A stretch of 30,381 nt of DNA, filler included, from an uncultured Methanosarcinales archaeon (GTDB lineage: Archaea > Nanobdellota > Nanobdellia > Woesearchaeales > CAXGTL01): NCBI GenBank assembly GCA_964535955.1. It is 7 parts of 7 records of this genome, joined end to end, with 100 filler letters (N's around TTAATTAATTAA, not from the genome) between each part and the next. Parts side by side here need not be neighbours in the genome. Positions count along the whole stretch, not along the records: positions 1 to 7,278 come from CAZHVK010000024.1; 6 more parts are not named here. One strand, 5' to 3'. The translations under genes were made by a program, and so were the position numbers. Positions 2,316-25,185 of this stretch are shown here, piece by piece; the stretch's first letter is position 1, and the number at the start of each line of letters is the position of its first letter. The notes below the pieces were generated by a model. It ran no database searches. It was not told the DNA's origin and worked only from the letters and a program-made list of their open reading frames with translations.

Positions 2316-3299
2316 TTACCACATTACTTTTGGAAATGAGACTATTTTTAAATTTTCTAGAACCAATGAGAGTGAATAATTTTTTAAATTGTCTTTAAAA
2401 TATGATCTTAATATGTTAAATTGTTCATCAAATTGTTTTGGATTTTCTGCAAGTATATTTATTTTTAAATCATAATTTCCAATTACCCTCTCTGCAAATA
2501 TTACCTTGTCTTGTGTTTTAAGAAATTTTGCAATTTTTCTTCTTTTTTCATTTGAAAATTTATTGATTCTTAGAAAAATAACATATCTTGTATAACCTAA
2601 TTTAGTATGATTAATGATTGCTTTTGCTCCTGATATGATCCCTATTTTTATTAATCTATTGAATCTATTTGAACATGTTTCAGGATTTAGATTTGTTCTT
2701 CTGGCTAATTCTGAAATAGGAAGTTTTGGACTTTTTGATAATGTGTTTAAAATTCTTCTATCTTTATTGTCTATTCTAATTTTCCCATAATATTTTTCAG
2801 GCTTTTTTATTTTATAATTCATTTTTGAAATAATTTCTAAATTTCCATGTTTTAAAGGGACTATGTTTATTAGCACATGGTTTTCTGCAATATTTTCTCC
2901 AAATTCTTCATTAATCTCTTCTATGAAATCAGAGAGTCCGAATTTATTTTTAACAGCAATTGTTAGGATAAGGTCCCAGTCACCACTACACCTATCAAAA
3001 TATTTGATATTTCTATTTTTTTTAATAAAACTACAAATCCTTTCTAATGCCTCATTTGTCACATTTTGAATTTTTATAAGGATAGTATAGGTCTTAAAAT
3101 TAAGTTTTGTATTACTTATTATTAGGTTGTATCCTGAGATAAATTTTTCTTTTTCTAATTTTTTTATTCTATATGCTGCAAGTTCTCTTGAAATATGTGC
3201 TAATTTTGATAACCTTGTTTGAGAAATTCTTGCATTTTGATTTAGTATTTTAAGCAAATCTTTATCCTTTTTATCTAGTTTTTTTATTTTTCTTGGCAT
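2316..3299 (-). CDS. Lrp/AsnC-family transcriptional regulator with two tandem HTH+RAM units
   Basis: LDKKDKDLLKILNQNARIS...RIKKLEKEKFISGY and IDNKDRRILNTLSKSPKLPISELAR...RFNRLIKIGIISG; GDWDL and GNYDL RAM motifs. Confidence 0.9.
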   Translation of the reverse strand: MPRKIKKLDKKDKDLLKILNQNARISQTRLSKLAHISRELAAYRIKKLEKEKFISGYNLIISNTKLNFKTYTILIKIQNVTNEALERICSFIKKNRNIKYFDRCSGDWDLILTIAVKNKFGLSDFIEEINEEFGENIAENHVLINIVPLKHGNLEIISKMNYKIKKPEKYYGKIRIDNKDRRILNTLSKSPKLPISELARRTNLNPETCSNRFNRLIKIGIISGAKAIINHTKLGYTRYVIFLRINKFSNEKRRKIAKFLKTQDKVIFAERVIGNYDLKINILAENPKQFDEQFNILRSYFKDNLKNYSLSLVLENLKIVSFPKVMW

Positions 3300-3364
3300 T
3301 ATTTTACAATAACTCTTACTTATTTATAAATTTTGTGTTAAATGTAAAAAATAGACTCTTAAAT

Positions 3365-3372
3365 TTTATATA
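3365..3372 (+). promoter_or_regulatory. Putative archaeal TATA box for the ncRNA-ligase-Ro60 unit
   Basis: TTTATATA lies about 27 nt upstream of the 5' stem of the first structured RNA (3399). A divergent TTTATAAA (about 3323-3330) precedes the lrp ATG. Confidence 0.55.
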
Positions 3373-3398
3373 ATACCTTTACTATCAATTATTCTATT

Positions 3399-3473
3399 AG
3401 AGGTGAAGAAAAGGTTACTTCGATGAATTCAAATTCATTTGTGAAAGCAATACCCCTTTTCTTATAGTCCTCT
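3399..3473 (+). ncRNA. Y RNA-like structured RNA, copy 1 (divergent)
   Basis: AGAGG(3399-3403)/CCTCT(3469-3473), AAGAAAAGG(3406-3414)/CCTTTTCTT(3455-3463), GTTACTTCG motif, hairpin ATGAAT-TCAA-ATTCAT, GNRA hairpin TTGT-GAAA-GCAA, 3' AGTCC. Confidence 0.7.
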
Positions 3474-3487
3474 TATATTATGTTCAC

Positions 3488-3587
3488 ATAGGGGTGCGGA
3501 AGGAGTTACTTCGGTGCTAAATGGTTCGATTCCATTAACAATGGGGAAACCTGTTGTCAATAAACACTTCTTTCACCAGTCCCCTAT
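3488..3587 (+). ncRNA. Y RNA-like (YrlA-like) structured RNA, copy 2, with tRNA-like T-arm
   Basis: ATAGGGG(3488-3494)/CCCCTAT(3581-3587), GGAAGGAGT(3498-3506)/ACTTCTTTC(3566-3574), GTTACTTCG, T-arm AATGG-TTCGATT-CCATT (3520-3536), GNRA hairpin ACAATGGG-GAAA-CCTGTTGT (3538-3557), U-tract after the stem; lies in the same locus as a Ro60 gene. Confidence 0.8.
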
Positions 3588-3715
3588 TTTTCGTGAAAAT
3601 TACGGTTAAAAACAAAAAATCATTATAAAAAAGAATTAGTATAAAGGATATGTATATATCATAAATATATCATAAATATACAATAAACACACAATATTTA
3701 ACGAGGTGCAAAAAA

Positions 3716-4771
3716 ATGCCATTTTTGAAATATAATAAAATATATAGAATTGATTTAGATGAAGATACAAGAAGTATTTTAGGAGAAAGTGGGTTAATTG
3801 TAACTGAAAAATTAGATGGATGTAACTTATTAATCTGGAAAGATGGTGGTAAGATTCATGTAGGTAAGAGAACTCAAGAATTGCCTATGTCAGTTAATGA
3901 TCATAAGAAAGGTATGTTTAGTGAAGTTGTAAAATGGGTAGAAAATACAAACTGGGATTTTTTACCGGAAGGGGTTATTTTATACGGGGAAGGGTTAAAA
4001 GGAAAAGAGTATGGGAAGGACAAATACAAGACAATAGGTAAGATTCAGTATGAAAGAAAAGAACCATTTGTATTGTTTGATGTGTTTGATTTTGAAAAAG
4101 ACTTTTGGTTTAGTCCTGAAAGTAAAAGATGGAAAAAGATTAGATCAGATTTTAAGAAAGCAAATGGATCTGAATTACCACAAGTACCTGTAATTGATGT
4201 AAGTTTTGAATTACACAGAATTAACGATTTAAATAAGTTGTTAGGCCCATCAGAATGGAGTGAGAATGTAAAGAAAGAAGGGGTTGTTGTTAAAAAGTAT
4301 TATCCTGATGGAAAAGTAGTGATGGTGAAGTTAGTTGATGATGAGTTCAAGGAATTTATCAAAAGAAAAGCAAAGCCTAAAGGAAGTGCATACTATGAAA
4401 TTGTTGGGTCTGTTGTGACCAAAGCAAGAGTTGAAAAAATTATGAGAAAAGAAAATGTAAAAAGTATCAAAGATTTCAGTAAATTAATCAAAGCTGTTGT
4501 TGAAGATGTTTTTGAAGAGGAAGAAAAAGAATTAAAAGAATTGGCGTGGAAAAATTTTAAAAAGAATTTAGGAAAAGTAATGCCACAAATGATCAAGAAA
4601 CACTTTGATGAGATTACAGCAGAAATAATTGAAAGAGAGGAGAAAGAAAAGATGGAAAAGATTGATAAAAAAACAGTTGGAGAAGAAAAAGTCAAAGTTG
4701 AGAATAAAGCAAGTGATAAGAATATAGTTACTAAAGGTGTTGTTCAAAAGGATCAAGTAATCTCAACTTAA
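3716..4771 (+). CDS. ATP-dependent RNA ligase, Rnl2 family
   Basis: Nucleotidyltransferase motifs I (TEKLDGCN), III (LYGE), IIIa (FVLFDV), IV (EGVVVK), V (MVKLVDDEFKE). C-terminal VTKARVEKIMRK...KDFSKLIKAVVEDVFEE resembles the T4 Rnl2 C-domain. RBS GAGGTG at 3703-3708. Confidence 0.88.
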   Translation: MPFLKYNKIYRIDLDEDTRSILGESGLIVTEKLDGCNLLIWKDGGKIHVGKRTQELPMSVNDHKKGMFSEVVKWVENTNWDFLPEGVILYGEGLKGKEYGKDKYKTIGKIQYERKEPFVLFDVFDFEKDFWFSPESKRWKKIRSDFKKANGSELPQVPVIDVSFELHRINDLNKLLGPSEWSENVKKEGVVVKKYYPDGKVVMVKLVDDEFKEFIKRKAKPKGSAYYEIVGSVVTKARVEKIMRKENVKSIKDFSKLIKAVVEDVFEEEEKELKELAWKNFKKNLGKVMPQMIKKHFDEITAEIIEREEKEKMEKIDKKTVGEEKVKVENKASDKNIVTKGVVQKDQVIST

Positions 4772-4779
4772 TCATATTC

Positions 4780-4844
4780 AAGGGGTGCGGAAGGAGTTAC
4801 TTCGGTACATAACCATAAAAACACTTCTTTCATTCAGTCCCCTT
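4780..4844 (+). ncRNA. Y RNA-like structured RNA, copy 3 (minimal, lacks T-arm)
   Basis: 4781-4806 is identical to 3490-3515 (26 nt), 4819-4832 is identical to 3562-3575, CAGTCCCCT is shared. Terminal stem AAGGGG/CCCCTT, TAC-TTCG-GTA hairpin, followed by a T7 tract. Confidence 0.78.
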
Positions 4845-4890
4845 TTTTTAATCCCCAGAGCACAAAGATGTTTGGGGTGGAGGTAAAAAA

Positions 4891-6444
4891 ATGAATAAAA
4901 CAATAAAAAGAATCTTTGAAGGATTCAGAACAAGAAAAATATACAGCAATGCAGACCATTGGAATAAAGAAGGTCAACTAAGTTTTAGTTTAACTGATGA
5001 AGATTTGTTTCTTCAAACACTATTAACAAATACTTGCTCAGATGTCTTTTATGCTGATAAGAATGAACTAATAGAAGATAGTGTAGAGATTCATTCCAAT
5101 ATGTTGATTAAGAATCCTAAGTTCTGTGCTCAAGCAATAGTCTATGCAAGAACTAAAGGGTTTATGAGGCTTCAACCAATACTTGGTTTAGTTTTTTTGT
5201 CTACTTTAAAGGATAAAAGGTATTTTAAATCAGCATTTCAAAGAGTAATTTTAACACCATCTGATTTAGAATCTTTTATTGATCTCTGTAGGAGTGATAT
5301 AATTAGAAAAGGTGTTGGTAGGTCTGTTAAAAAAGAAATAATTAATTATCTTAAAAATAAATTAACAGAATATCATGCAATCAAGTATAAGAATCAATTA
5401 AAAGATGCTATAAGGGTTAGTAGGCCTGCTTCAAAGGTTTTTGAAGGTGTTAAGAAAGACATTGTTGAGTTTATCATGAAAAATAAAGTTACTAGAAAAC
5501 TTGAACAAGTCAATGCAATTAGTGCTCTTAGAGATCTTAATGTTAAGAAAGATGAATCCAAGATAATAAAGCTGATTGAGAAAGGTAGACTGCCATATGA
5601 GTCTATTGTTGGCACAATTAGTCCAAGTCCAAAGATTTGGGAAGCATTACTTTACCAAATGCCTATGTTTGCAACATTAAGAAACCTAAATGTTATGGCA
5701 AGAAATAAGGTTTTTGAATCAAGCAAAGCAATAGACTATGTTTGTGAAAAGTTTAAGCATGTTGAAAAGAGTAGAATCTTGCCTTTTAGATTTCACACAG
5801 CTTTGAACAAGCTAGAATCAGATGTGCCTATGAAGATAAGAGATTGTCTTAGAGATGCACTTGAAAGAAGTTTTGTAAATTTGCCTGAGATCAAAGGCAG
5901 AACATGTATTTCACCTGATGTAAGTGGCAGTATGGGTGGAAGACCAATACAAATTGCAGCTATCTTTAGCGCAGCTTTGCTTAAGAAATGTGATGATAGT
6001 CTTGTTTTGCCTGTTGACACTAAATTGTATGAAAATACATGCAGTAGAAGAGATAGTATGATGACTAATGCAGAAAAAATCATGAAATTTGGTGGTGGTG
6101 GAACAGAACTTGATCTACCTATTGAGTATTTGCTTAAGAAAAAGATTAAGGTTGACAACTATATTTGTATTACTGATAGTGAAGAATGGTATAGTGAGAA
6201 CAGGTATTATGGAAGAACTGGTAGAGGATTTTACAAAGCATTGCTTAATTACAAGAAAAAAGTTAACAGAAATGTTAAGGTCTTTTTTGTGAGACTCCAA
6301 CCTTATGGAGATAGTATGGTTCCAAAACACGAACATGGTTTGTATAATATTGAAGGTTGGTCAAATACTGTGCTTGATTTTATAGCAACTATAATTAACA
6401 TTGATAAAGACCAAAAAGCAGATATTTCAAGAATTGAGGTTTAG
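4891..6444 (+). CDS. rsr: Ro60/Rsr-like TROVE domain protein with C-terminal vWA domain
   Basis: TROVE features (WNKEG, FYA, AIVYARTKGFMR, WEALLYQMPMFATLRNL, SRILPFRF), vWA MIDAS DVSGSM, GGGGTE, ITDSE, GWS. RBS GGAGGT at 4879-4884. Confidence 0.95.
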   Translation: MNKTIKRIFEGFRTRKIYSNADHWNKEGQLSFSLTDEDLFLQTLLTNTCSDVFYADKNELIEDSVEIHSNMLIKNPKFCAQAIVYARTKGFMRLQPILGLVFLSTLKDKRYFKSAFQRVILTPSDLESFIDLCRSDIIRKGVGRSVKKEIINYLKNKLTEYHAIKYKNQLKDAIRVSRPASKVFEGVKKDIVEFIMKNKVTRKLEQVNAISALRDLNVKKDESKIIKLIEKGRLPYESIVGTISPSPKIWEALLYQMPMFATLRNLNVMARNKVFESSKAIDYVCEKFKHVEKSRILPFRFHTALNKLESDVPMKIRDCLRDALERSFVNLPEIKGRTCISPDVSGSMGGRPIQIAAIFSAALLKKCDDSLVLPVDTKLYENTCSRRDSMMTNAEKIMKFGGGGTELDLPIEYLLKKKIKVDNYICITDSEEWYSENRYYGRTGRGFYKALLNYKKKVNRNVKVFFVRLQPYGDSMVPKHEHGLYNIEGWSNTVLDFIATIINIDKDQKADISRIEV

Positions 6445-7815: not shown

Positions 7816-9561
7816 ATGGCAAAAATAAAGGTGTTGTCTCAAGATCTTATTAATAAGATTGCTGCAGGTGAAGTGATAGAAAAACCTAGTTCTGTAGTAA
7901 AAGAATTAATTGAAAATGCACTAGACGCATATGCTGACCAAGTATTGGTTGAGATAATCGAAGGTGGTAAGTCTTACATAAAAGTGCAAGATAATGGTTT
8001 TGGCATGAATGAAAAAGATGCAATGCTTAGTTTTCATAGACATGCTACTTCTAAAATTTCTGTTACACAAGATTTGTTTGACATAAATACACTGGGTTTC
8101 AGAGGTGAAGCATTGGCTTCAATTGCTGCTGTAAGTAACGTTAAGATCACGACCAGAGTTAAAGAAAAAATTGAAGGTGTTTTTATTGAAGTGGAAAATG
8201 GAACAATAAAATATAAAGCAAGTGTTGGTTGTCCTGTTGGTACTGTAATCGAGGTTTCTAATTTATTTTATAATACTCCTGCTAGGAAAAAATATTTAGA
8301 ATCTATACAAAATGAAACAAGACACATAACAGATATTGTGATTAGATATTCTTTGATTAATCCCAAGGTTGGGTTTAAATTAATAAGCAATGGAAATATT
8401 ATTATTAATACTCCTTTTACACCTGATGTATTGGCAAATGTAGCAAGTATATATGGGGCTGATGTTGCAAAAACACTTTTACCAATTAATTATTCATCTG
8501 ATTCAATAGAAATAAAAGGGTTTATATCTAAACCTAGTTATACAAGGGCTGATAAAACACAGCAAAGTGTTTTTGTTAATAAGAGGTATGTGAAGAATAA
8601 AATTATTAGTTCTGCTATACATGATTCTTACAAAGAATTATTAATGTTGCACAGGCATCCGTTTGTTATTCTAGATATTACTATTCCTGCAAGATCAATA
8701 GATGTGAATGTGCATCCTACGAAAAAAGAGATCAGATTATCTAAAGAAGGTTTAGTCTACCAAATTGTGTTTGATGCTGTAAAAAAGACTTTGCAAGAAA
8801 ATAATTTAGTAACTGAAAGAGAGATAACTGACAAAGAATTACAGAAATCATTCCACCAAACAATAAAGCCAATAACAGAACAACAAGAAGCACTAAAAGC
8901 AAACAAAGTAGTTGAACCAATGTCACAACAAACATTGGCAAAACCAGATACACAAGTCTCAACAAGTGAACAAACACAACAACTTCCTCAAGTAAACATA
9001 CTTGGTCTTGCACATAATTGCTACATATTAGCTGAAACTCCTGATGGTGTTGCGATCATTGACATGCATGCTGCAGAAGAAAGGATTAATCTAGAAAATC
9101 TGCAACAACAGTATGAAGATAAAGGCATAAAAACACAACAATTGCTTTCTCCTGAAACCATTACTTTAAGTCCAACAGATTCTCAATTATTACAATCAAA
9201 CTTAACACAATTAACTAATTATGGCTTCATTGTAGAGCACTTTGGTCAAAATACATTCTTAATAAGGTCAACACCTGTGATAATGAATAAACAACAGAAA
9301 AAAGAATTGCTTCTTGACATATTAGATGAATTAAATGCAAACAAAGCAAAGCTCATAGACCAGATAAAAGACAAAGTCATAAGAAGAATGGCTTGCAGAA
9401 AGTCAATCAAGCAAGGAGACAGGATTGAGATGGCTGAGATGTATGCTTTAGTACGTAAGTTGTACAAATGCAAAGATCCTTATGCTTGTGCGCATGGTCG
9501 TCCCACTATTATTAACTTAACAAAGTATGATCTTGAGAAAAAGTTTAAGAGGGTTGTTTAA
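7816..9561 (+). CDS. mutL: DNA mismatch repair protein MutL (endonuclease type)
   Basis: IAAGEVIEKPSSVVKELIENALDA, DNGFGM, HATSKI, TLGFRGEALASI, DVNVHPTK; C-terminal DMHAAEERINLE, ACR, CAHGRP. Confidence 0.98.
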   Translation: MAKIKVLSQDLINKIAAGEVIEKPSSVVKELIENALDAYADQVLVEIIEGGKSYIKVQDNGFGMNEKDAMLSFHRHATSKISVTQDLFDINTLGFRGEALASIAAVSNVKITTRVKEKIEGVFIEVENGTIKYKASVGCPVGTVIEVSNLFYNTPARKKYLESIQNETRHITDIVIRYSLINPKVGFKLISNGNIIINTPFTPDVLANVASIYGADVAKTLLPINYSSDSIEIKGFISKPSYTRADKTQQSVFVNKRYVKNKIISSAIHDSYKELLMLHRHPFVILDITIPARSIDVNVHPTKKEIRLSKEGLVYQIVFDAVKKTLQENNLVTEREITDKELQKSFHQTIKPITEQQEALKANKVVEPMSQQTLAKPDTQVSTSEQTQQLPQVNILGLAHNCYILAETPDGVAIIDMHAAEERINLENLQQQYEDKGIKTQQLLSPETITLSPTDSQLLQSNLTQLTNYGFIVEHFGQNTFLIRSTPVIMNKQQKKELLLDILDELNANKAKLIDQIKDKVIRRMACRKSIKQGDRIEMAEMYALVRKLYKCKDPYACAHGRPTIINLTKYDLEKKFKRVV

Positions 9562-11548: not shown

Positions 11549-12376
11549 TCATAAATTATCATAAGGACTTGTAACATTACTAACTTTATAACTAGACATA
11601 CGAGTATAAACTTGTGTTGTCTTAATATCAGAATGACCTAAAAGAAACTGAACATCTCTTAAAAGATTGCCATTTTCAATCAAATGTGTTGCAAATGAGT
11701 GTCTAAAAGTGTGTGGGTGAACATTTTTTTTGATTTTTGCTTTTTTAGAAGCAGCTTTAACAACTCTATAAACTGTTTCAATGCTAAGATGTCCATTTCT
11801 ACCCTTAAACACATAATCATTATAATCTAATTCTTTAGATAAGACAAAATCACGTAATTCTTCTTTCAACTTTTTAGCAATAATAAACATTCTATCTTTT
11901 TTACCTTTACCAAATCTGACCCATCCAAAACCTTGATCAATTTCTAGATCACAAACCTTTAATCTAACAAGTTCACCAACTCTTAAACCAGAAGAATACA
12001 ATAATTTTACAATTAGTTTGTGTTTAACATTGTCAATACAATTAATTATCAACCGAACTTCTTGTTTTGTTAATACAGTTGGCAGTGTTTTAGGAATTTT
12101 TGAGAATTTATAATTCAATTTCCATGTATTATATAAAATCTGACTAACAAAAAACTTAACAGAAGACAAAGCAACATTAAGTGTAGAACCACATTTATCT
12201 TTTGTGCAAAGGTGTTCAATATATTTCTTAACATCTCTTTTAGTAATCTTTCTAACACAATCTCTTTTACCACAAAAATCCAGAAATTTATCTACAAATA
12301 AACAATAAGTTTCAGCAGTTCTATTGCTCATGCCTCTTCTTTTGCATTCTTTTTTTATTAGTTCGAGTGGTTGCAT
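11549..12376 (-). CDS. Tyrosine recombinase (Xer/integrase family, N-terminal SAM-like domain)
   Basis: LLYSSGLRVGE, GKGKKDR, HPHTFRHSFATHL, LLGHSDIKTTQVY: complete R-K-H-R-H-Y catalytic set. Confidence 0.95.
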   Translation of the reverse strand: MQPLELIKKECKRRGMSNRTAETYCLFVDKFLDFCGKRDCVRKITKRDVKKYIEHLCTKDKCGSTLNVALSSVKFFVSQILYNTWKLNYKFSKIPKTLPTVLTKQEVRLIINCIDNVKHKLIVKLLYSSGLRVGELVRLKVCDLEIDQGFGWVRFGKGKKDRMFIIAKKLKEELRDFVLSKELDYNDYVFKGRNGHLSIETVYRVVKAASKKAKIKKNVHPHTFRHSFATHLIENGNLLRDVQFLLGHSDIKTTQVYTRMSSYKVSNVTSPYDNL

Positions 12377-18843: not shown

Positions 18844-21603
18844 TTATTTTGATTCTGCAATAAGATTATACTCCCATGAATTCTTAAAATTAGGCAGTTT
18901 TATTTCAATAGTATAATTTAACTCTGTTATATGAATTGGTTTTTCAGGATTAACTGGGTTTGATCTCTTATAGTAATAATTTCCATAATCATTTATTTTA
19001 AAACTTGATGAAATGGTATTTGATTCAATGTTAGAGTTAGGTTCCTCATATTTAATATGGATTACATCATCTAAAACAAGGTCTGTAAACAACTGCAATC
19101 TATTATTTTGAGAATCAGACACACCAAATTCAATATAAATCCTATCTTCATTGTCAAAATTGTAAAGATGACCATTAATTAATTCTAAGTTCACTTGATT
19201 AAGATTCTGTTTGTTATAATTCCATTGTTTGATAGTTTCTATATGTTTTTTAATTTGTTCTCCACCAGTAGGGCCATAACCTCTACCAAATATTTGATCA
19301 TTGGTTATATTTGGTTGCCCAGCAGCCATAATATTATAATCATATGCTCTAAAAAAAGGTAACCCAACTAACCAACAGTTAGTTTCTCCAATACAATTAA
19401 GTCCAAAGTCACACCCATAAGGATCATTATTAATGCCTTTCTCATTTAACATTTCAGTAAATGAAGCTAAACAATTATTTGCATCTCCTCTTGTTTTGGT
19501 TTGGTTTGATAAAAGACAATCTTTATAATTAATATATTCTTCATAACATTGAGAATTTGTATTAATTTGTCCAGAACACCATTTAGGACAACCTTCAATA
19601 TCCCAATTAGCTGGCAAATTAGAATTATCATTAAACCAACTTTCCGTAATGTTAACACTATCTTCATATTCATTACTTTCTATAAATGATTTTCCATACC
19701 CTTCATCTAATGCACCTAAAGAATGTCCTATCTCATGTAAACCTGTTTGTAATTCATTTAAATATCCTGACTTATAAGGTTGGGCCCAAACATTGCCTCC
19801 TATCTTAGAAACAGTTTTAGAATAACCTTCCGTACCAAATCCGATGTTAAGAGGACCTATGGTAATTATTTGATAAATATTTTCAGAAAGCACAGGGCAT
19901 TTTTCTTTTAAAATATCTTTGATTGCATCCCCTCTACCATAACCTTCTTCTCCTATTTTAGAACTATTTAAGTAATCATATTCTTCCAAATAAAAGAAGT
20001 TAATATCATTCTTATGTTCATTAAAAGGATATACTGAAAAAAAGGAATATTCTTGATTATCATCAAAAAATGTACTTAAATAGCTTATTGACTCTTCTTC
20101 TTCATCTTTTAATTCTAAACCAGGAATAAGAACAAAATTAATATTATCTTTTACGTCCCCCCCATAAAATATAGATTTACAACTACCAAAATCATGATTA
20201 ATCTCAGATTCTTCATCTTCTTCAACCAACTCAAACTCTTTTTCATCTAAAACATTTATTTCATTAAGCAGCACATTCTCAAAAACAAATTTCACATTAT
20301 AAGTTCCAAATTCAAGATCATCAATTTGTCCATTTATTTCCAAAGGACATATGCATTTACTGATAGATTCTGCGTCTAATATCTCTCTAACTTCAATGTT
20401 ATTGCCAGAGATTTTATATTGTAAGATCATATCACCTTCTGCTCCACAATAAGTATTGAGTGTCTGATGGAATCTAATTGAGTTTCTTTGTTGTGATAAC
20501 TGTATAGAATTCATAGCTTTTGATAATGAACTTGTACAGCCTTTAAAATTATAATCAAAATAAATTTCATCTTCTTCAGTATTTTCACAATTAGTCTCCC
20601 ATTTTTCACACAATAATTCATTACCTACATTGCATTCTTCTAGATATTCCTCACAATCCTCTGCAGTTGCACCTTCTGTTCCTCTGATAATATCTTTCTC
20701 TTTGACTAAAAAGCTCCACCATGGTTTATCTATATTTTCAATATCACCATCCTCAGCATCAATGATTATTTTAACGGGCATTTCAATTTCAAATAATCCT
20801 AAAATTTTTCCTAATTTTTTACCTTCAATCTCATAGCTAGGTTTTCCAGTATCTTTAAGTTCAATCTTAACATCTTTATTCATCTTAAGTTTTTCAATTG
20901 CCGTCTCAGAAGCAGTATTAGGCATAATTTTAATCTCTTTATTGTTCACATAAATTTTATCATCTTTGATCTCAACTTCTTCTATTGTTTCAGCGATAAT
21001 ATCCTGTCCTTGACAATTTACCTCATATTTAACGCATAGTATCTCATTGCCATTTTTGCATTCTTTTCGATATCCACCACAATCTTTTTTAGTTGCACCT
21101 ATAATAGAGATAACATTTTTCTCCCCTTTAGATTTAATATTTACATTACTTTCTTTTTCAGGACCGTGTTCGACTGCTACAATCTGTTTAGTATTATTTA
21201 TTTGATTATTTTCATAATCCTTTTTTTCTTCATTTTCCTGCTTTGCTTCATTTTCATCAACTGTAATTTCTTTAGTATTAGTATCTACATTTTCTATAGT
21301 ATTTACTTGATCTTTTTTATCTTCTTCTTGTTCTTGATCTTCCTTTGTTTTTGTCTCATTATTCTCTATTTGAATTACTTGGTTTTCTTTTTCTTTATTT
21401 TCATATTGAAGTTTATTATTATCATTAATAACTAATTCTTTGGTATTATCTGTTTTAGCATCATCAATAGGAACAACTTTATCTTCATTTATTTCTTGTT
21501 CAGAACTAGTGGTTATTTCCTTAGTAAGCTCAGAAGCGCTAACAAAATTAAAAATAATTAAACTAATCATAAGAATAATTAATATAACACCAAATTTTTT
21601 CAT
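18844..21603 (-). CDS. Large secreted multidomain zincin metallopeptidase (M64-like)
   Basis: Signal peptide MKKFGVILIILMISLIIFNFVSA (ATG 21603), acidic linker, two 4-Cys modules, DNINFVLIP...YPFNEHKNDINF, HEIGHSLGALDE, NIM Met-turn. Confidence 0.8.
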   Translation of the reverse strand: MKKFGVILIILMISLIIFNFVSASELTKEITTSSEQEINEDKVVPIDDAKTDNTKELVINDNNKLQYENKEKENQVIQIENNETKTKEDQEQEEDKKDQVNTIENVDTNTKEITVDENEAKQENEEKKDYENNQINNTKQIVAVEHGPEKESNVNIKSKGEKNVISIIGATKKDCGGYRKECKNGNEILCVKYEVNCQGQDIIAETIEEVEIKDDKIYVNNKEIKIMPNTASETAIEKLKMNKDVKIELKDTGKPSYEIEGKKLGKILGLFEIEMPVKIIIDAEDGDIENIDKPWWSFLVKEKDIIRGTEGATAEDCEEYLEECNVGNELLCEKWETNCENTEEDEIYFDYNFKGCTSSLSKAMNSIQLSQQRNSIRFHQTLNTYCGAEGDMILQYKISGNNIEVREILDAESISKCICPLEINGQIDDLEFGTYNVKFVFENVLLNEINVLDEKEFELVEEDEESEINHDFGSCKSIFYGGDVKDNINFVLIPGLELKDEEEESISYLSTFFDDNQEYSFFSVYPFNEHKNDINFFYLEEYDYLNSSKIGEEGYGRGDAIKDILKEKCPVLSENIYQIITIGPLNIGFGTEGYSKTVSKIGGNVWAQPYKSGYLNELQTGLHEIGHSLGALDEGYGKSFIESNEYEDSVNITESWFNDNSNLPANWDIEGCPKWCSGQINTNSQCYEEYINYKDCLLSNQTKTRGDANNCLASFTEMLNEKGINNDPYGCDFGLNCIGETNCWLVGLPFFRAYDYNIMAAGQPNITNDQIFGRGYGPTGGEQIKKHIETIKQWNYNKQNLNQVNLELINGHLYNFDNEDRIYIEFGVSDSQNNRLQLFTDLVLDDVIHIKYEEPNSNIESNTISSSFKINDYGNYYYKRSNPVNPEKPIHITELNYTIEIKLPNFKNSWEYNLIAESK

Positions 21604-21895
21604 ATCAATCTCAATAATCCTTTTATAATTTATAAAGTTATTGGTCAATCAAAAAAAAGCTCAAAACTTAACCTTTTCTTGACAAGATTTATATATCTCC
21701 TAAGACAACCTAATAGCTGTTACAGGCGCTTAAACACCTAAAAAGTGCAGGTAAGCTGAATTGAGCCAAGATTCCAAAATCAGGCTTTCGCAGAATATGG
21801 CGATGAGTTTTACGAAAAAATGGCACTGTCGCCCAGATTCTTTGCGGAGAGATTAATCACTACTTATGGGTGGTCACTTTTCCGAAACATTTATA

Positions 21896-21995
21896 NNNNN
21901 NNNNNNNNNNNNNNNNNNNNNNNNNNNNNNNNNNNNNNNTTAATTAATTAANNNNNNNNNNNNNNNNNNNNNNNNNNNNNNNNNNNNNNNNNNNN
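21896..21995. other. Artificial contig linker
   Basis: N44-TTAATTAATTAA-N44. Confidence 0.98.
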
Positions 21996-22404
21996 ATTTT
22001 TTTGATAATGTTATGTGGTATTCGAATGATGGTTTTGTTTTGATTTCAAAGTTTCTTGTTTCTGTGAATGTGTAAGGTTCTTTTATTGAAACTGATGCTG
22101 TACATGTTCCTGGTTCAAAATCTTCATCAAGTATTCCAAAAGAATATGAATCATAAAATGGTTGATCTTTTTTTAATTTTGCTTGTTTAAGCTCTAATAA
22201 TGCTTGAGGTGCATCAGGACAATTAACACTTGATGTGTATTTTATTGATTCATCTTCATATGAAATCATTCTAAATGCAAATTCTATTTCATCTCCTTCA
22301 TAAAAAACCGGGTCAATATTTATGTAAATCTGCGGTGCACTGATTACAAAGCAGCTTAATAATATGAAGATTATTGTTATTGTTATGTTTTTTAGTATTT
22401 CCAT
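21996..22404 (-). CDS. Secreted beta-sandwich-like hypothetical protein, 3' truncated
   Basis: Signal peptide (ITIIFILLSCFVISA); RBS AAGGTGA upstream; overlaps the stop of the upstream gene. Confidence 0.8.
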
Positions 22405-25085
22405 GGTAACTCACCTTCTAGTTTATATTCAGGATTTGGATTAAAAGTGGGATCGCCGATAAAAGTAGTCATAAAATTAAAAGGATTATAATCATAACTT
22501 TTTGCAAAAGCCTGCCCTAAATCTAAATCAGAATAATAAATCCCCTCCATTATATGTTTATAATCTTTGTTACCTGACCAAGCAATAGAGATTGCTCCAA
22601 AATGACCTAGCCCTCCTTTTCGAATAACAGTATTACAAAATGAGCTAGAGTCATAAGTAGAACATGTTGAACAAGCAGCATTATAAACAATAGAATTGCT
22701 TAACCAAGGAATTTTGTTTGATGTAATCCCTGCCCAAGCAGAGGATCCATGGTCCATATATGAAATAAGTTCTTTATTTTTCCAAAGAGGTGGCCAACTA
22801 TTTCCATTTTTATTATCAATATCACACAAATAATTTTCAATTTCAGAAGGATTAAAAATTCCTCCATGATCTAATTCTGGTTGAATGCTACAATGTGTAT
22901 TATATCCTGCATTTGAAAAAGATTTTGACCATTTATCTGAATGCAACATCTTATATCTAGAAGAGCTTGCCATAAATTCCATATAATTAGTATCTAATAT
23001 ATTATCATAAAAAAGATCTCTTGCAACATAACCAGATACATCTGATAAACTTATTCCTTGGATTCTACCAACTGATAAATCTGGTTGTTTATCACTTAAA
23101 TAAAAATCACTATATTCTGAAGAATCTAATGACCTGTAATTACCATAACCCAAGAAACCCATAAATTCCCTAATTGGAATTGCATTAGGAGCTCCAATAA
23201 TAGTTAAATATCCATAAATATTATATTCATTATTCTCATTCAAAATATAGAACATATCATTTCCCAACACAAGAGGGTTTTTTGCATTTATATCATTACT
23301 TATTTTGTGTTTTTCTTTGGAATTAATATCATAAGAATAAATTGCAGTTGGTTCACAATCATCCTTAATACAAGTTTCGTAAGATTTACAATCCTTATCT
23401 GTTTCGCAAAGATTGTAATTCCTATTACAATATTTTTGACAATTGGAAGAATCAATACAAGAATTTTGTGAAAGTTCACAAGTTCTGTCCTCATCTTCAA
23501 ACCAAATAATATTTTTATTATTAAATGAAGTGTCTGAATAAAAATTATCTGTTATTAAAGATTCATCTTTAGTTGAAATGTCATAAAGATAAAGATTTTG
23601 CTCTCTGTTCAAAAGAACCTTATTATTAGAAATTTCTGCAAAATCAACATCTATAATTTGTTCTTTCTTATCTAAAGAAAGATCATATAAATAGAATTCT
23701 TGTTCATTATCATCTACTAATTCATATAAGACTTTATTACCTGAAAAGCCAAGGTTTCTGAAATTATTAGCAGTTGCAATACTTTTCTCTTGCTTAGAAT
23801 TTAAATCATAAGTATTTAGAGTAAAAGACTTAGTTACACAAAAATCAGAGTAACAACCATCCCATTCGTTTTCATTACAATCAGAATCAGATTGACAAGC
23901 AATTTTACTAAATGAACAAAACTTATTTTCTTTACAATCTTCATCACTAATGCAAACCTCTTCTGAGATTCTACAAACACTTTGTTCTGGTTTTATAAAA
24001 ACAAGTACATTGTCGTTAATCTTTACATTTTTACAACGTCCTTTATAAGAAAACAATTCTTTTTCTTTTTTCTCATCTAGATCATATAAATAAACTCTGC
24101 ATTTTGAATCGCCTCTAGAATAACCAGTATAAACAATTTGATTTTCATTGAAGTCAGTATTCAACCAATCATTCACTTCGAGTTCTAGCTGTTCTTTTGA
24201 ATTTGTTTCAACATTATAAAGATAAATCTTTTCTCTTTCATTGAATAATAAATTATTACCTAAAACAAACAAATTAGTAGCCCTATTAGAAAAAGTATAA
24301 ACTAGATAATCTTCCCCTGAATTAAGATCCTTTTTATATAATTTGGTTACAAAATGATTATCTTTAACCCCTTGTTCATTATTAATTAAATTAGGTGTGA
24401 AATCTTGTATTACTAACTTAAGATCTTTATCAATTTCTTTATATTCTTGTTTTGCAATCGGAAAAATGATCTCATGTTTTGCACTTGCTAAGATTGGTGC
24501 TGATAATGAAGTTTTTGTGTAAAGACTTTGAATAGGTTTAACTGATTTTTCTGGAATTAATTTTTCTGTAACCTTAAGATCTAAATCATTGGGATTAAGT
24601 AGGATTATTTTATCTGTTTTTGTCTTGTCTATGTATAATTTTTGTAATTGTTCTAATGTGTATTGTTCATAGCATTCTTTGTTGACTTTACCAATGCAAA
24701 TCAGATTCTTATCTATGAAAACATTATCATTATCTAGATTGGTGTTTTCAATTATCAAAGGTGCATTTATCAATGAAGCATATGTTGATGCTAATAATGC
24801 TGATTCATAATCATCTTCTACATAAACAACATCTTTATATGAATTCCAATATGAAAGATAATCATTAGTTTTTATTTTGTTTATTTGTTTTTCATTTAAA
24901 CCTGCGCCAAGTTCTGGTTCAGATGTCAATAAATTATTTAAGTCTTCAGGTGTTTGACCAATAATTGTTAGTTTATCAGTGGAATATTGTTGCATAAAAT
25001 ATATTGCTGAGTCTATGTCATAACTAGTTTCTTCCTCATGCCATATCAGCGTCGGATAAACACAAACATTATCAGGAGTTCCATA
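22392..25085 (-). CDS. Large extracellular peptidase C25 (gingipain-like) protein with beta-propeller and Cys-rich inserts; 5' truncated
   Basis: Frame open to the contig end (YGTPDNVCVYPTLIWHEEE...). C25-type motifs YLTIIGAPNAIP, PDLSVGRI, YMDHGS (His), NAACST (Cys), FIGDP. Repeated YLYDL/YLYDI propeller strands. Confidence 0.8.
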   Translation of the reverse strand, partial: YGTPDNVCVYPTLIWHEEETSYDIDSAIYFMQQYSTDKLTIIGQTPEDLNNLLTSEPELGAGLNEKQINKIKTNDYLSYWNSYKDVVYVEDDYESALLASTYASLINAPLIIENTNLDNDNVFIDKNLICIGKVNKECYEQYTLEQLQKLYIDKTKTDKIILLNPNDLDLKVTEKLIPEKSVKPIQSLYTKTSLSAPILASAKHEIIFPIAKQEYKEIDKDLKLVIQDFTPNLINNEQGVKDNHFVTKLYKKDLNSGEDYLVYTFSNRATNLFVLGNNLLFNEREKIYLYNVETNSKEQLELEVNDWLNTDFNENQIVYTGYSRGDSKCRVYLYDLDEKKEKELFSYKGRCKNVKINDNVLVFIKPEQSVCRISEEVCISDEDCKENKFCSFSKIACQSDSDCNENEWDGCYSDFCVTKSFTLNTYDLNSKQEKSIATANNFRNLGFSGNKVLYELVDDNEQEFYLYDLSLDKKEQIIDVDFAEISNNKVLLNREQNLYLYDISTKDESLITDNFYSDTSFNNKNIIWFEDEDRTCELSQNSCIDSSNCQKYCNRNYNLCETDKDCKSYETCIKDDCEPTAIYSYDINSKEKHKISNDINAKNPLVLGNDMFYILNENNEYNIYGYLTIIGAPNAIPIREFMGFLGYGNYRSLDSSEYSDFYLSDKQPDLSVGRIQGISLSDVSGYVARDLFYDNILDTNYMEFMASSSRYKMLHSDKWSKSFSNAGYNTHCSIQPELDHGGIFNPSEIENYLCDIDNKNGNSWPPLWKNKELISYMDHGSSAWAGITSNKIPWLSNSIVYNAACSTCSTYDSSSFCNTVIRKGGLGHFGAISIAWSGNKDYKHIMEGIYYSDLDLGQAFAKSYDYNPFNFMTTFIGDPTFNPNPEYKLEGELPWKY

Positions 25086-25185
25086 NNNNNNNNNNNNNNN
25101 NNNNNNNNNNNNNNNNNNNNNNNNNNNNNTTAATTAATTAANNNNNNNNNNNNNNNNNNNNNNNNNNNNNNNNNNNNNNNNNNNN
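25086..25185. other. Artificial contig linker
   Basis: N44-TTAATTAATTAA-N44. Confidence 0.98.

Follow-up and report, generated by a model that had tools for sequence, protein, structure and literature searches.

Candidate Y RNA genes with a shared scaffold and differing middles beside a Ro60 orthologue in a Woesearchaeota-like archaeon

The window analyzed here (the whole stretch of DNA, 30,381 nucleotides) includes an archaeal contig with three related RNA elements at 3399-3473, 3490-3585 and 4781-4843, all on the + strand, which lie around an RNA-ligase gene and ahead of a gene for a TROVE/vWA Ro60 orthologue. The features of this locus are listed below, P1 and P2 being the terminal and second stems of the elements.

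2316-3299, - strand: double Lrp/AsnC-type regulator gene, transcribed divergently
3364-3373, + strand: archaeal TATA-box-like element TTTTATATAA, about 26-30 nt upstream of copy 1
3399-3473, + strand: candidate Y RNA copy 1, 75 nt (P1 3399-3403/3469-3473; P2 3406-3414/3455-3463; GTTACTTCG at 3414-3422)
3490-3585, + strand: candidate Y RNA copy 2, 96 nt (P1 3490-3494/3581-3585; P2 3498-3506/3566-3574; GTTACTTCG at 3505-3513)
3716-4771, + strand: ATP-dependent RNA ligase gene, 351 aa, between copies 2 and 3 (Pfam RNA_ligase PF09414, E 1e-17; motif I KLDG)
4781-4843, + strand: candidate Y RNA copy 3, 63 nt (P1 4781-4785/4839-4843; P2 4789-4797/4823-4831; GTTACTTCG at 4796-4804)
4853-4890, + strand: Ro mRNA leader, with a hairpin CCCCAGA/TTTGGGG (4853-4859 with 4871-4877) and then a ribosome-binding site
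4891-6444, + strand: Ro60/Rsr orthologue gene, 517 aa (TROVE ring and vWA domain with the MIDAS motif DVSGSM; Pfam TROVE and vWA_Ro60)

The Ro start (4891) is 1418 nt past the end of copy 1, 1306 nt past that of copy 2 and 48 nt past that of copy 3, and all three are on the Ro strand. The Ro protein was matched by the human and Xenopus Ro60 structures (E 7e-18 and 5e-16, respectively), residues 25-499 aligning with Xenopus Ro60 (1yvp), and its MIDAS residues D343, S345 and S347 are invariant in 16 homologues. With the NCBIfam Rsr equivalog it reached only 50 bits against a cut-off of 900, which makes it a divergent member.

A 5-bp P1, an asymmetric internal loop, a 9-bp P2 and the 9-mer GTTACTTCG are common to all three elements, so that the shared 5'/3' scaffold described in the first-pass annotation could be confirmed on the window sequence. 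Copy 1 is arranged as AGAGGTG-AAGAAAAG-GTTACTTCG ... AATAC-CCCTTTTCTT-AT-AGTCC-TCT and copy 2 as AGGGGTG-CGGAAGGA-GTTACTTCG ... AACAC-TTCTTTC-ACC-AGTCC-CCT, copy 3 having the same ends as copy 2. The internal loop consists of UG plus 0-1 nt on its 5' side and of 5-7 nt on its 3' side, with AGU at the end of the latter, and a near-invariant block GUUACUUCG follows P2. That copies 2 and 3 are identical over their first 26 nt and over AAACACTTCTTTCA (14 nt), and that the arms of copy 1 differ yet still pair (AGAGG/CCTCT vs AGGGG/CCCCT; AAGAAAAGG/CCTTTTCTT vs GGAAGGAGT/ACTTCTTTC), was also found as annotated; the sizes had been estimated at about 75, 95 and 63 nt and measure 75, 96 and 63 nt. P1 and P2 form in the minimum free energy folds of all three copies (z = -2.9, -2.0 and -2.1), and on the - strand, copy 3 showed no folding advantage over shuffled sequence (z = -0.5). 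We dropped the idea of a K-turn at the internal loop, as inspection by eye revealed no tandem G-A pairs.

The 9-mer GTTACTTCG has three matches in the window against 0.01 expected, and the spaced pattern GGTG-N8-RTTACTTCG has three against 0.00 expected (100 shuffles); all of them are on the + strand. With a longer spacer, the spaced pattern covers Chloroflexi relatives with a 10-nt arm. Two regular-expression matches elsewhere (L033:2487 and L066:220) have no terminal stem and are not recovered by the covariance models described below, and we treated them as chance occurrences.

The three copies differ in what P2 encloses. In copy 1 we found one clear 7-bp hairpin (3422-3439) and no tRNA-like part; the second of the two short hairpins previously annotated there is not predicted in the fold. 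Copy 2 has, as described before, a T-arm AAUGG-UUCGAUU-CCAUU (3520-3536) followed by an 8-bp hairpin with a GAAA loop (3538-3557). This T-arm is the single match to GGTTCRANNCC in the window, and its letters correspond to G53, U54, U55, C56, G57, A58 and C61, which we take to be invariant in tRNA T-arms. Copy 2 lacks a D-arm, with only 8 unpaired nt at its expected place. The middle of copy 3 is indeed short and A-rich, and only a 3-bp hairpin is found there. T-arm, acceptor-like stem and D-arm are all absent from copies 1 and 3, and ARAGORN found no tRNA in the window.

The scaffold is also found in two RNAs of a second archaeal locus, L001 (Candidatus Woesearchaeota), where they again lie between this Lrp-type gene and a Ro gene, whose product is 64-65% identical to the window Ro; no ligase gene is present there. 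Compensatory changes are seen in both P1 (UGAGG/CCUCA and CGAGG/CCUCG) and P2 (GAGGAAAGG/CCUUUUCUC and UGGAGAAG/CUUCUCCG) of these RNAs, one of which contains a T-arm, ACGG-UUCAAAU-CCGU. L001 is the one locus available for independent archaeal comparison, since a further one, L002, is cut inside Ro.

The three window copies and the two L001 RNAs were the only seed (five archaeal RNAs) of a covariance model, R1, with which we searched 68 sources (713 kb) on both strands. In the seed alignment (A4), copy 3 and the L001b RNA were one column off register in P2, and the models realigned both; a joint archaeal and bacterial MAFFT alignment (A3) misaligned the 3' ends and was kept out of model building. 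R1 yielded 30 matches at E<=10, 30/30 on the Ro strand. Among the 25 non-seed matches (67 Ro loci), 20 end within 1 kb upstream of Ro (5 of these 20 are identical Paenibacillus sequences), 4 lie at 1-4 kb upstream and 1 is downstream. The bacterial matches are individually weak (E 0.015-5), so it is their strand and position that make the case. The second-round model, R2, gave 133 matches at E<=1 in 61 of the 68 sources, again all on the Ro strand (133/133), and 109 of them are located within 1 kb upstream of Ro, compared with 5.9 expected from the share of searched sequence. Copy 1 itself scored 80.1 bits with R1 and 55.5 bits with R2 (E 1e-08). Enrichment near TROVE genes, which the earlier annotation had demanded of a true Y RNA family, is thus observed with both models, whose matches are on the same strand as Ro and mostly within 1 kb upstream of it. 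The bacterial members form arrays of up to 6, and 8/133 matches are downstream of Ro; 35/133 are shorter than 85 nt, and the T-loop is absent from 31 of these 35. Tandem paralogue sets with differing middles are therefore ordinary for the family, and the trio in the window is less exceptional than had been implied. At the TROVE locus of the haloarchaeal virus HGTV-1, R2 with filters off gave only weak matches on mixed strands; the best-placed one, directly upstream of the TROVE gene, is not significant (8.8 bits) and looks plausible by eye and by folding.

Covariation, proposed before as a test of the scaffold, is strong in both P1 and P2. Because R2 and alignments A5 and A6 were fitted to the tested structure, the pairing counts are favoured: 91.5% of cells are paired in 18 distinct sequences against 73.3% in shuffles, and 90.1% against 69.1% in 119 distinct sequences, in which P1 is 98.6% and the apical 6 bp of P2 98.7% paired. 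Both sides have changed in 10/14 pairs of the smaller set (47 such cells vs 13.8 in shuffles and 4-11 in slid controls) and in 12/14 pairs of the larger (387 vs 120 and 4-41, respectively). RNAalifold predicts both stems unaided, with 8/12 pairs compensated. One G-U pair is conserved in 108/119 sequences and the arms GGAAGGAGT/ACTTCTTTC of copies 2 and 3 include G-U pairs that exist on the + strand only, which together fix the strand. Within GUUACUUCG, U23, C25 and C28 are invariant in the 119 sequences, and UUAC (the YUAY that in YrlA comes after the second stem, where the variable loop begins) is found in all three copies. The column AGU on the 3' side of the loop has its G in 10/119 sequences, 5 of them archaeal. 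These elements belong to a sequence family with a covarying structure and a strand-specific linkage to Ro.

As for expression, the TATA-like element is contained in a 14-nt block, CTTAAATTTTATAT, that is identical in the Woesearchaeota L001 locus and, by alignment, equally distant from the first RNA there. The distance between TATA box and transcription start is well established in archaea. Since its spacing fits this distance, 3364-3373 probably acts as the promoter from which the RNAs are transcribed. Neither copy 2 nor copy 3 is preceded by a clear TATA box of its own. A T5 run follows copy 2 (3587-3591) and a T7 run marks the end of copy 3 (4843-4849), where the RNAs may end; no T run follows copy 1 or either L001 RNA. 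A scan for sigma-70 promoters and intrinsic terminators, uninformative for an archaeon, gave 7 promoter-like sites vs 7.6 expected and 0 terminators. The Lrp/AsnC-type regulator keeps its position and orientation in L001 (59% identity), and one may speculate that it regulates the RNA genes. The block TTGGGGTGGAGGTAAAAA of the Ro leader is also identical in L001. Within the leader, GGGGUGGAGG resembles the Y RNA 5' strand and is most simply the ribosome-binding site. The ligase aligned with the Naegleria gruberi RNA ligase (E 4.5e-05) in the nucleotidyltransferase domain only, and had only two relatives in the protein collection. As none was found at the 67 other Ro loci, or in phages, its link to Ro is specific to this genome.

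Taken together, it is very likely, judging from sequence and predicted structure, that the three elements are small non-coding Y RNA genes of the bacterial YrlA/YrlB type, carried with Ro60 in a DPANN-type (Woesearchaeota-like) archaeon. The enrichment at Ro, the covariation and the recognition of bacterial relatives by YrlA (see below) all support three Y RNA paralogues with a common predicted Ro-binding stem and different middles, as had been suggested initially. They would be reduced archaeal relatives of bacterial Y RNAs, known in kind and new in their archaeal form. By homology with bacterial and animal Y RNAs, the scaffold may be where the Ro60 ring docks with its outer surface, and the part enclosed by P2 may serve as an exchangeable effector module. 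In copy 2, this module would be a T-arm plus a closed acceptor-like hairpin, i.e. a mimic of a tRNA minihelix lacking the D-arm; in copies 1 and 3, as in the short YrlB, it would be reduced to a short hairpin or be nearly absent. Such RNAs could gate or tether Ro60, and copy 2 could bring a tRNA-recognizing partner to it. Together with the interposed ligase, the set probably has a part in repairing RNA or controlling its quality, a role that has been proposed for rsr-yrlBA-rtcBA operons.

On the other hand, the elements might not be free RNAs and instead act in cis within one or two operon transcripts (copy 1 - copy 2 - ligase - copy 3 - Ro), serving as Ro-binding, processing or attenuation sites that control the ligase and Ro. 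Several details would suit such a role: the ligase gene comes right after copy 2, the 119 nt that separate ligase and Ro are taken up by copy 3, the only well-placed, conserved TATA box is at copy 1, the T runs after copies 2 and 3 could be attenuators, and a conserved hairpin precedes the Ro ribosome-binding site. However, the L001 RNAs do without the ligase, and neither the bacterial arrays nor the members downstream of Ro fit a leader function, so we consider this improbable. In Salmonella, YrlA and YrlB are encoded in an operon and yet are stable RNAs that accumulate bound to Ro, according to the parts of the sources used here (bioRxiv 10.1101/312249; PMC4201824), and therefore the Y RNA and cis-acting readings are not exclusive. 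It is very hard to believe that the elements are decaying tRNA-like or duplicated remnants of no present function, for example scars of a ligase insertion between copies 2 and 3. The identity of these two copies over 26 and 14 nt on both sides of a ligase absent from other Ro loci, the resemblance of copy 3 to a copy 2 minus its middle and the incompleteness of the tRNA-like part would agree with decay; nevertheless, scaffold positions show conservation and compensation both across phyla and when the window is compared with L001, at a Ro identity of only 64-65%, the deletion in copy 3 leaves precisely P1, P2 and GUUACUUCG intact, and short members lacking the T-arm are common (31 of the 35 matches below 85 nt). 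Finally, a chance repeat or low-complexity artefact, conceivable in an AT-rich genome with arms made of purine or pyrimidine runs, has a negligible probability and is refuted by the R1 and R2 searches (homologues in the same context in other genomes), the covariation and the three exact matches, against 0.00 expected, of a spaced pattern of 13 letters.

Beyond the assignment as Y RNA genes, we tentatively propose a fuller scenario, possible rather than probable, in which a Ro60-Y RNA cassette came, probably from bacteria and as one protein and RNA unit, and was refitted for an archaeal cell: it would have gained a TATA promoter and oligo-T ends, had its tRNA-like module trimmed to a T-arm/acceptor minihelix, and received a rare ligase between near-identical paralogues. 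Its Y RNAs would recruit, in place of PNPase, an archaeal partner, candidates being the neighbouring ligase, the exosome and enzymes that modify tRNA or process ends. In the Ro tree (49 rows, unrooted), the three archaeal Ro sequences form a clade (SH-aLRT 99) adjoining Bacillota (96). A bacterial origin is only suggested by this topology because a long-branch join and odd composition were flagged, no more than 85 residues of L002 are included, the tree lacks a root and similarity guided the choice of sequences. Omitted from it were the partial L065 and L067 as well as 17 Paenibacillus-type loci that are near-duplicates (L035, L037-L043, L045, L047, L048, L050, L051, L053-L055 and L064).

Ro60, a major autoantigen in humans, is studied together with Y RNAs as a particle for RNA quality control, in animals as well as in bacteria. 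In the literature consulted, Y RNAs are treated as animal, bacterial and phage RNAs. The phrases "archaeal Y RNA", "archaeal Ro60" and "Y RNAs in archaea" had no full-text occurrence, although an earlier mention may exist, and the string "archae" is absent from Tables S1 and S2 of Chen et al. (2014; PMC4201824). If expressed, the RNAs described here would extend the Ro-Y RNA partnership to archaea. The cassette, if real, would represent the first archaeal Ro60 RNP to be described, found in a DPANN symbiont with a reduced genome, and, along with the weak HGTV-1 candidate, would imply that Y RNAs accompany Ro60 in the archaeal domain too. Expression would also make the three copies a natural minimal set (scaffold alone, scaffold plus hairpin, scaffold plus T-arm minihelix), from which the needs of Ro binding could be separated from the additions made by effector modules. 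Moreover, many short Y-like RNAs missed by Rfam YrlA at its cut-off can be picked up with a covariance model of the scaffold alone.

When compared with Rfam, as recommended in the first-pass annotation, the outcome was mixed. In a 216-nt search, neither Y_RNA nor YrlA matched the window RNAs at E<=10, and neither matched the L001 RNAs; long bacterial relatives are recognized by YrlA at 37-49 bits, which is below its gathering cut-off of 69 bits. YrlA (RF02553) covers the R1/R2 match L044:4691-4822 at full length (39.9 bits, E 2e-07) and also matches array members in 5/5 bacterial loci tested. In the parts of Chen et al. (2014; PMC4201824) used here, bacterial Y RNAs are located within 4 kb of Ro on the same strand and have a covariation-supported stem of paired 5' and 3' ends, both of which were found for the window copies, all three lying within that distance and on that strand. 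YrlA is further defined there by a T-arm, a closed acceptor-like stem and a D-arm, a combination that no copy has. The same source reports YrlA from Salmonella Typhimurium, Mycobacterium smegmatis and about 250 bacteria and phages, lists YrlAs beside Ro in Paenibacillus (Table S1) and reports that each species has one or more Y RNAs with a tRNA-like domain.

Like YrlA, the window RNAs are directly upstream of Ro60/Rsr on the same strand, their paired ends form two stems with an internal loop, and a G-rich 5'-strand motif is followed by GUUAY ("YUAY"). The YrlA seed (supplementary text 2, PMC4201824) has G-N-CGAA, then GGUUAYC, then the T-arm, and the window has GGUGAAG or GGUGCGGAAG, then GUUAC, in the same order; copy 2 adds a T-arm, whose T-loop letters are canonical, and then a closed hairpin resembling an acceptor stem. 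The candidate Ro contact reported for bacteria is the 5'-strand motif GNCGAAN0-1G (PMC4201824), from which GGUGAAG of copy 1 deviates by one mismatch (U for C), copies 2 and 3 having GGUGCGGAAG; this column is C in 70/119 and U in 48/119 family sequences. Unlike YrlA, the window RNAs have GGUG in place of GNCG, the 3' side of their internal loop ends in AGU rather than UUU/UUC, and they have an archaeal host, an archaeal-type TATA box and T-run ends. They also lack a D-arm, so a full tRNA-like L-shape cannot be assumed.

By description only, copies 1 and 3 can be likened to the short Salmonella Y RNA YrlB, being likewise a scaffold with a small middle; YrlB orthologues were found by BLASTN in Salmonella serovars only, as far as the consulted part of Chen et al. 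(2014; PMC4201824) tells. Short members of the bacterial arrays also resemble copies 1 and 3 in standing beside a longer paralogue that carries the tRNA-like part. Deinococcus radiodurans Yrn1, again likened by description, has like copy 2 a T-like stem-loop and no complete D-arm (PMC4201824). It tethers Ro to its effector PNPase and is the only Y RNA for which that source gives experimental evidence of partner binding (PMC4201824); PNPase is a bacterial enzyme, whereas the window host is archaeal. Metazoan Y RNAs (RF00019) differ in giving no Rfam match and, from what was available of the same source, in the vertebrate motif GGUCCGA (PMC4201824), but share the terminal stem with a loop or bulge as Ro60 site (predicted in the window RNAs), the variable middle, several paralogues per genome and the 3' U run. 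The Thermus phage phiLo RNAs Yrl1 and Yrl2, compared by description only from part of their report, differ in belonging to a phage of a bacterium and in their motif CGAA (PMC12135203). They are two Y-like RNAs likewise upstream of a Ro60 gene, were found by position, stem-bulge-stem shape and a short motif, and have been shown to bind Ro60 (PMC12135203).

The three RNA elements upstream of and between the ligase and Ro60/TROVE genes of the window are members of a covarying, strand-specific and Ro-linked RNA family that includes YrlA (Rfam RF02553). Their contig is archaeal: its bases 1-947 correspond to the 3' portion of a 23S rRNA of archaeal type (838 bits). No tRNA gene was detected in the window by ARAGORN. 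The locus is arranged as follows:

2316-3299, - strand, double Lrp/AsnC regulator, divergent
3399-3473, + strand, RNA copy 1
3490-3585, + strand, RNA copy 2
3716-4771, + strand, RNA ligase gene (Pfam PF09414, E 1e-17)
4781-4843, + strand, RNA copy 3
4891-6444, + strand, 517-aa protein with TROVE and Ro60-type vWA domains

Elsewhere the window encodes a HYExAFE-family protein (1016-1510), a homologue of MutL in which all three MutL domains are present (7816-9561), a tyrosine recombinase of XerC/D type (11549-12376) and, within 18844-27967, three ORFs of very large size (934, 867 and 945 aa) with C25 peptidase-like and laminin-G-like domains.

The first-pass annotation had described common ends in the three copies, identity of copies 2 and 3 over 26 nt and 14 nt, and arms of copy 1 that differ yet stay complementary, all of which were confirmed on the window sequence. 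The pattern GGTG-N8-RTTACTTCG occurred three times in the window and never in shuffles, and GTTACTTCG also occurred three times (0.01 expected). In the predicted folds of all three copies, a terminal stem of 5 bp (P1) is separated from a second stem of 9 bp (P2) by an asymmetric internal loop. G-U pairs, which copies 2 and 3 have in P2, make the - strand fold poorer: for copy 3, z was -2.1 on the + strand and -0.5 on the - strand. With regard to the middles, a second hairpin proposed for copy 1 could not be confirmed. The T-arm and GNRA hairpin assigned to copy 2 were recovered: the sole GGTTCRANNCC of the window lies there within a 5-bp T-stem, followed by an 8-bp hairpin capped by GAAA.

To place these RNAs among relatives, we collected 67 Ro loci from reference genomes using an alignment of the window Ro and 15 homologues. 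Two loci were archaeal (L001, from Candidatus Woesearchaeota, and L002, whose contig is cut inside Ro and has no upstream DNA), and the others came from Chloroflexota, Bacillota (mainly Paenibacillus), Paceibacterota and a few more. L001 carries the same Lrp-type gene (59% identity) and, between this gene and Ro, two scaffold RNAs with compensated letters, one with a T-arm; it has no ligase.

A first covariance model was seeded with no RNAs other than the five archaeal ones (three of the window, two of L001), and P1 and P2 were supplied as structure. Over 713 kb searched on both strands it gave 30 matches at E<=10, 30/30 on the strand of the Ro gene. Among the 25 non-seed matches, 20 ended within 1 kb upstream of Ro (5 of these being identical sequences from related Paenibacillus species), four lay 1-4 kb upstream and one downstream, when about one of 25 would be expected by chance in the 1-kb zone (4.5% of the searched sequence). 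The aligned matches began with NGAGG-(U/C)G, P2 and GUUACUUCG, continued through a variable middle, and closed with P2 (3' strand), a loop rich in U and a CCUCN end. A second model, built from the 22 best matches, gave 133 matches at E<=1 in 61/68 sources, only 111 of them new; 133/133 were on the Ro strand, and 109 lay within 1 kb upstream of Ro (5.9 expected), with up to six per locus. The motif is thus enriched near TROVE genes with both models. In contrast to this main search, the second model, run with filters off on one distant Ro locus, gave only weak matches on mixed strands.

Covariation among homologues was found in pair counts on both 18 and 119 distinct sequences. In the smaller alignment (22 sequences, 18 distinct rows), which like the larger one was fitted to the model and is biased towards pairing, 91.5% of cells were paired compared with 73.3% after shuffling, 10/14 pairs had both sides changed, and 47 cells were changed on both sides, versus 13.8 in shuffled and 4-11 in slid controls. 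For the 119 distinct sequences the paired cells amounted to 90.1% (69.1% shuffled), and those changed on both sides to 387 (120 shuffled, 4-41 slid). Pairing reached 98.6% in P1 and 98.7% in the apical six pairs of P2; the first P1 pair appeared in all four Watson-Crick forms (CG 48, AU 31, UA 23, GC 10), and one P2 pair was G-U in 108/119 sequences, which fixes the strand. RNAalifold, unaided, predicted the same two stems, and the compensations between the window and L001 are visible in the plain sequence.

It is possible that the elements, mainly copies 2 and 3, act purely in cis within the operon transcript, but such a role fits poorly with L001, which has the RNAs without the ligase, with arrays of up to six members, and with family members downstream of Ro. 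The idea of non-functional duplication remnants is contradicted: the elements are conserved, with compensated letters, in genomes that share only 64-65% identity in Ro. Chance is excluded.

Several loci showed additional features. Chloroflexota Ro loci had six Y-like RNAs in tandem that share the scaffold and differ greatly in length, 59-178 nt (L060:4049-4878, L011:3936-4971, L019:2896-4770, L012:2196-3702 and L013:3473-4987), with true tRNA genes between members (e.g. L060:4701-4774, L011:4017-4088 and L019:3568-3875). Ktedonobacterales-type loci had Y-like RNAs downstream of Ro (L046:6760-7005, L061:1872-2542, L062:2503-2577 and L065:8112-8182), with a divergent terminal stem (GUGGC.../...GCGCUUC). 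In the haloarchaeal virus Halogranum tailed virus 1 (NC_021328.1), a candidate Y-like RNA directly upstream of the TROVE-domain gene (L068:3780-3866) has CGG-UG-CGA, a perfect 9-bp second stem and then AUACUUC; its fold shows this scaffold too (z = -1.85), and its score with the second model, 8.8 bits, is not significant alone. L056 and L058 (Paceibacterota), L057, L059 and L007 gave no match to this model at E<=1 despite intact upstream sequence, and any Y RNAs of these loci are too divergent or more distant.

The 517-aa window protein aligned with the human and Xenopus Ro60 structures (E 7e-18 and 5e-16) and keeps the MIDAS motif DVSGSM. Its closest named relative is a Candidatus Woesearchaeota protein (64% identity), followed by bacterial proteins at about 39%. 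A quick tree of 49 Ro proteins, left unrooted, placed the archaeal trio in a clade adjoining Bacillota; 19 near-duplicate or fragmentary loci were omitted, L002 was represented by 85 residues, and the tool warned of odd composition and of long branches being joined. That the cassette came from bacteria is a reasonable reading, short of established. The L002 fragment (record titled uncultured Methanosarcinales archaeon), 64% identical to the window Ro, clusters with the two DPANN-type sequences, and the bin assignment may merit a re-check. Before the Ro start codon, a hairpin (CCCC...GGGG) is followed by the 18-nt block TTGGGGTGGAGGTAAAAA, with the same letters in both archaeal genomes (window 4853-4890, L001:4966-5000); these could control translation of Ro.

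With regard to transcription, CTTAAATTTTATAT, which contains a TATA-like box, is identical in the window and L001 and lies about 26-30 nt before the first RNA, a distance that fits the established archaeal TATA-to-start spacing. We infer from sequence that this box is a promoter, and transcription would likely start there. Runs of T5 after copy 2 and T7 after copy 3 could end transcripts, because archaeal polymerases terminate at oligo-T. A TATA-like tandem 11-nt repeat (TCATAAATATA x2, 3659-3680), 36-57 nt upstream of the ligase start, is possibly the ligase's own promoter.

The ligase has an N-terminal nucleotidyltransferase domain, weakly similar to that of the Naegleria nick-sealing RNA ligase (E 4.5e-05); its C-terminal 150 aa are rich in Lys and Glu and matched no family. 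A collection of 5.8 billion protein clusters yielded only two relatives (49% and 31% identity), and the ligase was absent from every other Ro locus fetched and from the phages searched; the Ro-ligase link therefore rests on one genome. Its flanking repeats are the near-identical copies 2 and 3, which suggests a recent duplication or conversion tied to arrival of the ligase.

According to the consulted parts of PMC4201824 and bioRxiv 10.1101/312249, the stem formed by the ends of a Y RNA, mainly its 5' strand, docks on the outside of the Ro60 ring, and the middle binds an effector (PNPase in Deinococcus); the RNAs may also gate entry to the Ro cavity. Genes for Rsr and Y RNA often adjoin RtcB and "occasionally" other RNA ligase families. 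The putative Ro site would consist of P1, P2 and the loop between them, together with GGUG and GUUACUUCG. With its T-arm and acceptor-like minihelix, copy 2 may look like a tRNA to a protein that recognises tRNAs, copies 1 and 3 may serve as gates or competitors without effector, and the RNA set and adjacent ligase might act in joint RNA repair.

Y RNAs beside a Ro gene are what a specialist would expect; what is new is that the host is archaeal, the modules are reduced and the ligase is unusual. Consulted portions of earlier reports mention Ro60 genes in archaeal settings: a TROVE protein in Borg elements (PMC11208441), Ro60 accompanied by an RNA ligase in "Nidhogg" viruses of Asgard (bioRxiv 10.1101/2021.07.29.454249) and Ro60 "across all three domains" (PMC12135203). 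We came across no account of archaeal Y RNAs; three explicit phrases had 0 occurrences in a full-text search, although reviews may say more. Within Chen et al. (2014; PMC4201824), Tables S1 and S2 contain no archaeon, and Table S1 lists Paenibacillus YrlAs and no Chloroflexi.

The Rfam YrlA model matched a Paenibacillus RNA (L044:4691-4822), also matched by both of our models, over its full length (E 2e-07; at 39.9 bits, short of the gathering score of 69), and one or two array members in each of five bacterial loci tested, again below cut-off; it did not match the window or L001 RNAs. By a rough motif count, T-loops and D-arms were present in 4 and 0 of 35 members shorter than 85 nt, 16 and 0 of 26 members of 85-110 nt, and 63 and 40 of 72 members longer than 110 nt. 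Middles thus scale with length, and a shared scaffold with a swappable middle is a general property of the whole family, the archaeal loci having reduced forms only. Bacterial Y RNAs, as characterised in the sections consulted of PMC4201824, lie near Ro, have a 5' motif GNCGAAN0-1G followed by YUAY, and include a tRNA-like domain made up of a T-arm, an acceptor-like arm and a D-arm. The window RNAs have GGUGAAG or GGUGCGGAAG, with U replacing C of the published motif, as in 48/119 family members, and their UUAC sits within the near-invariant GUUACUUCG. The archaeal RNAs also differ in that the 3' side of the internal loop ends in AGU in place of UUU/UUC. Copy 2 has only 8 unpaired nt at the expected place of the D-arm, and shares with YrlA the T-arm and closed hairpin in the published order.
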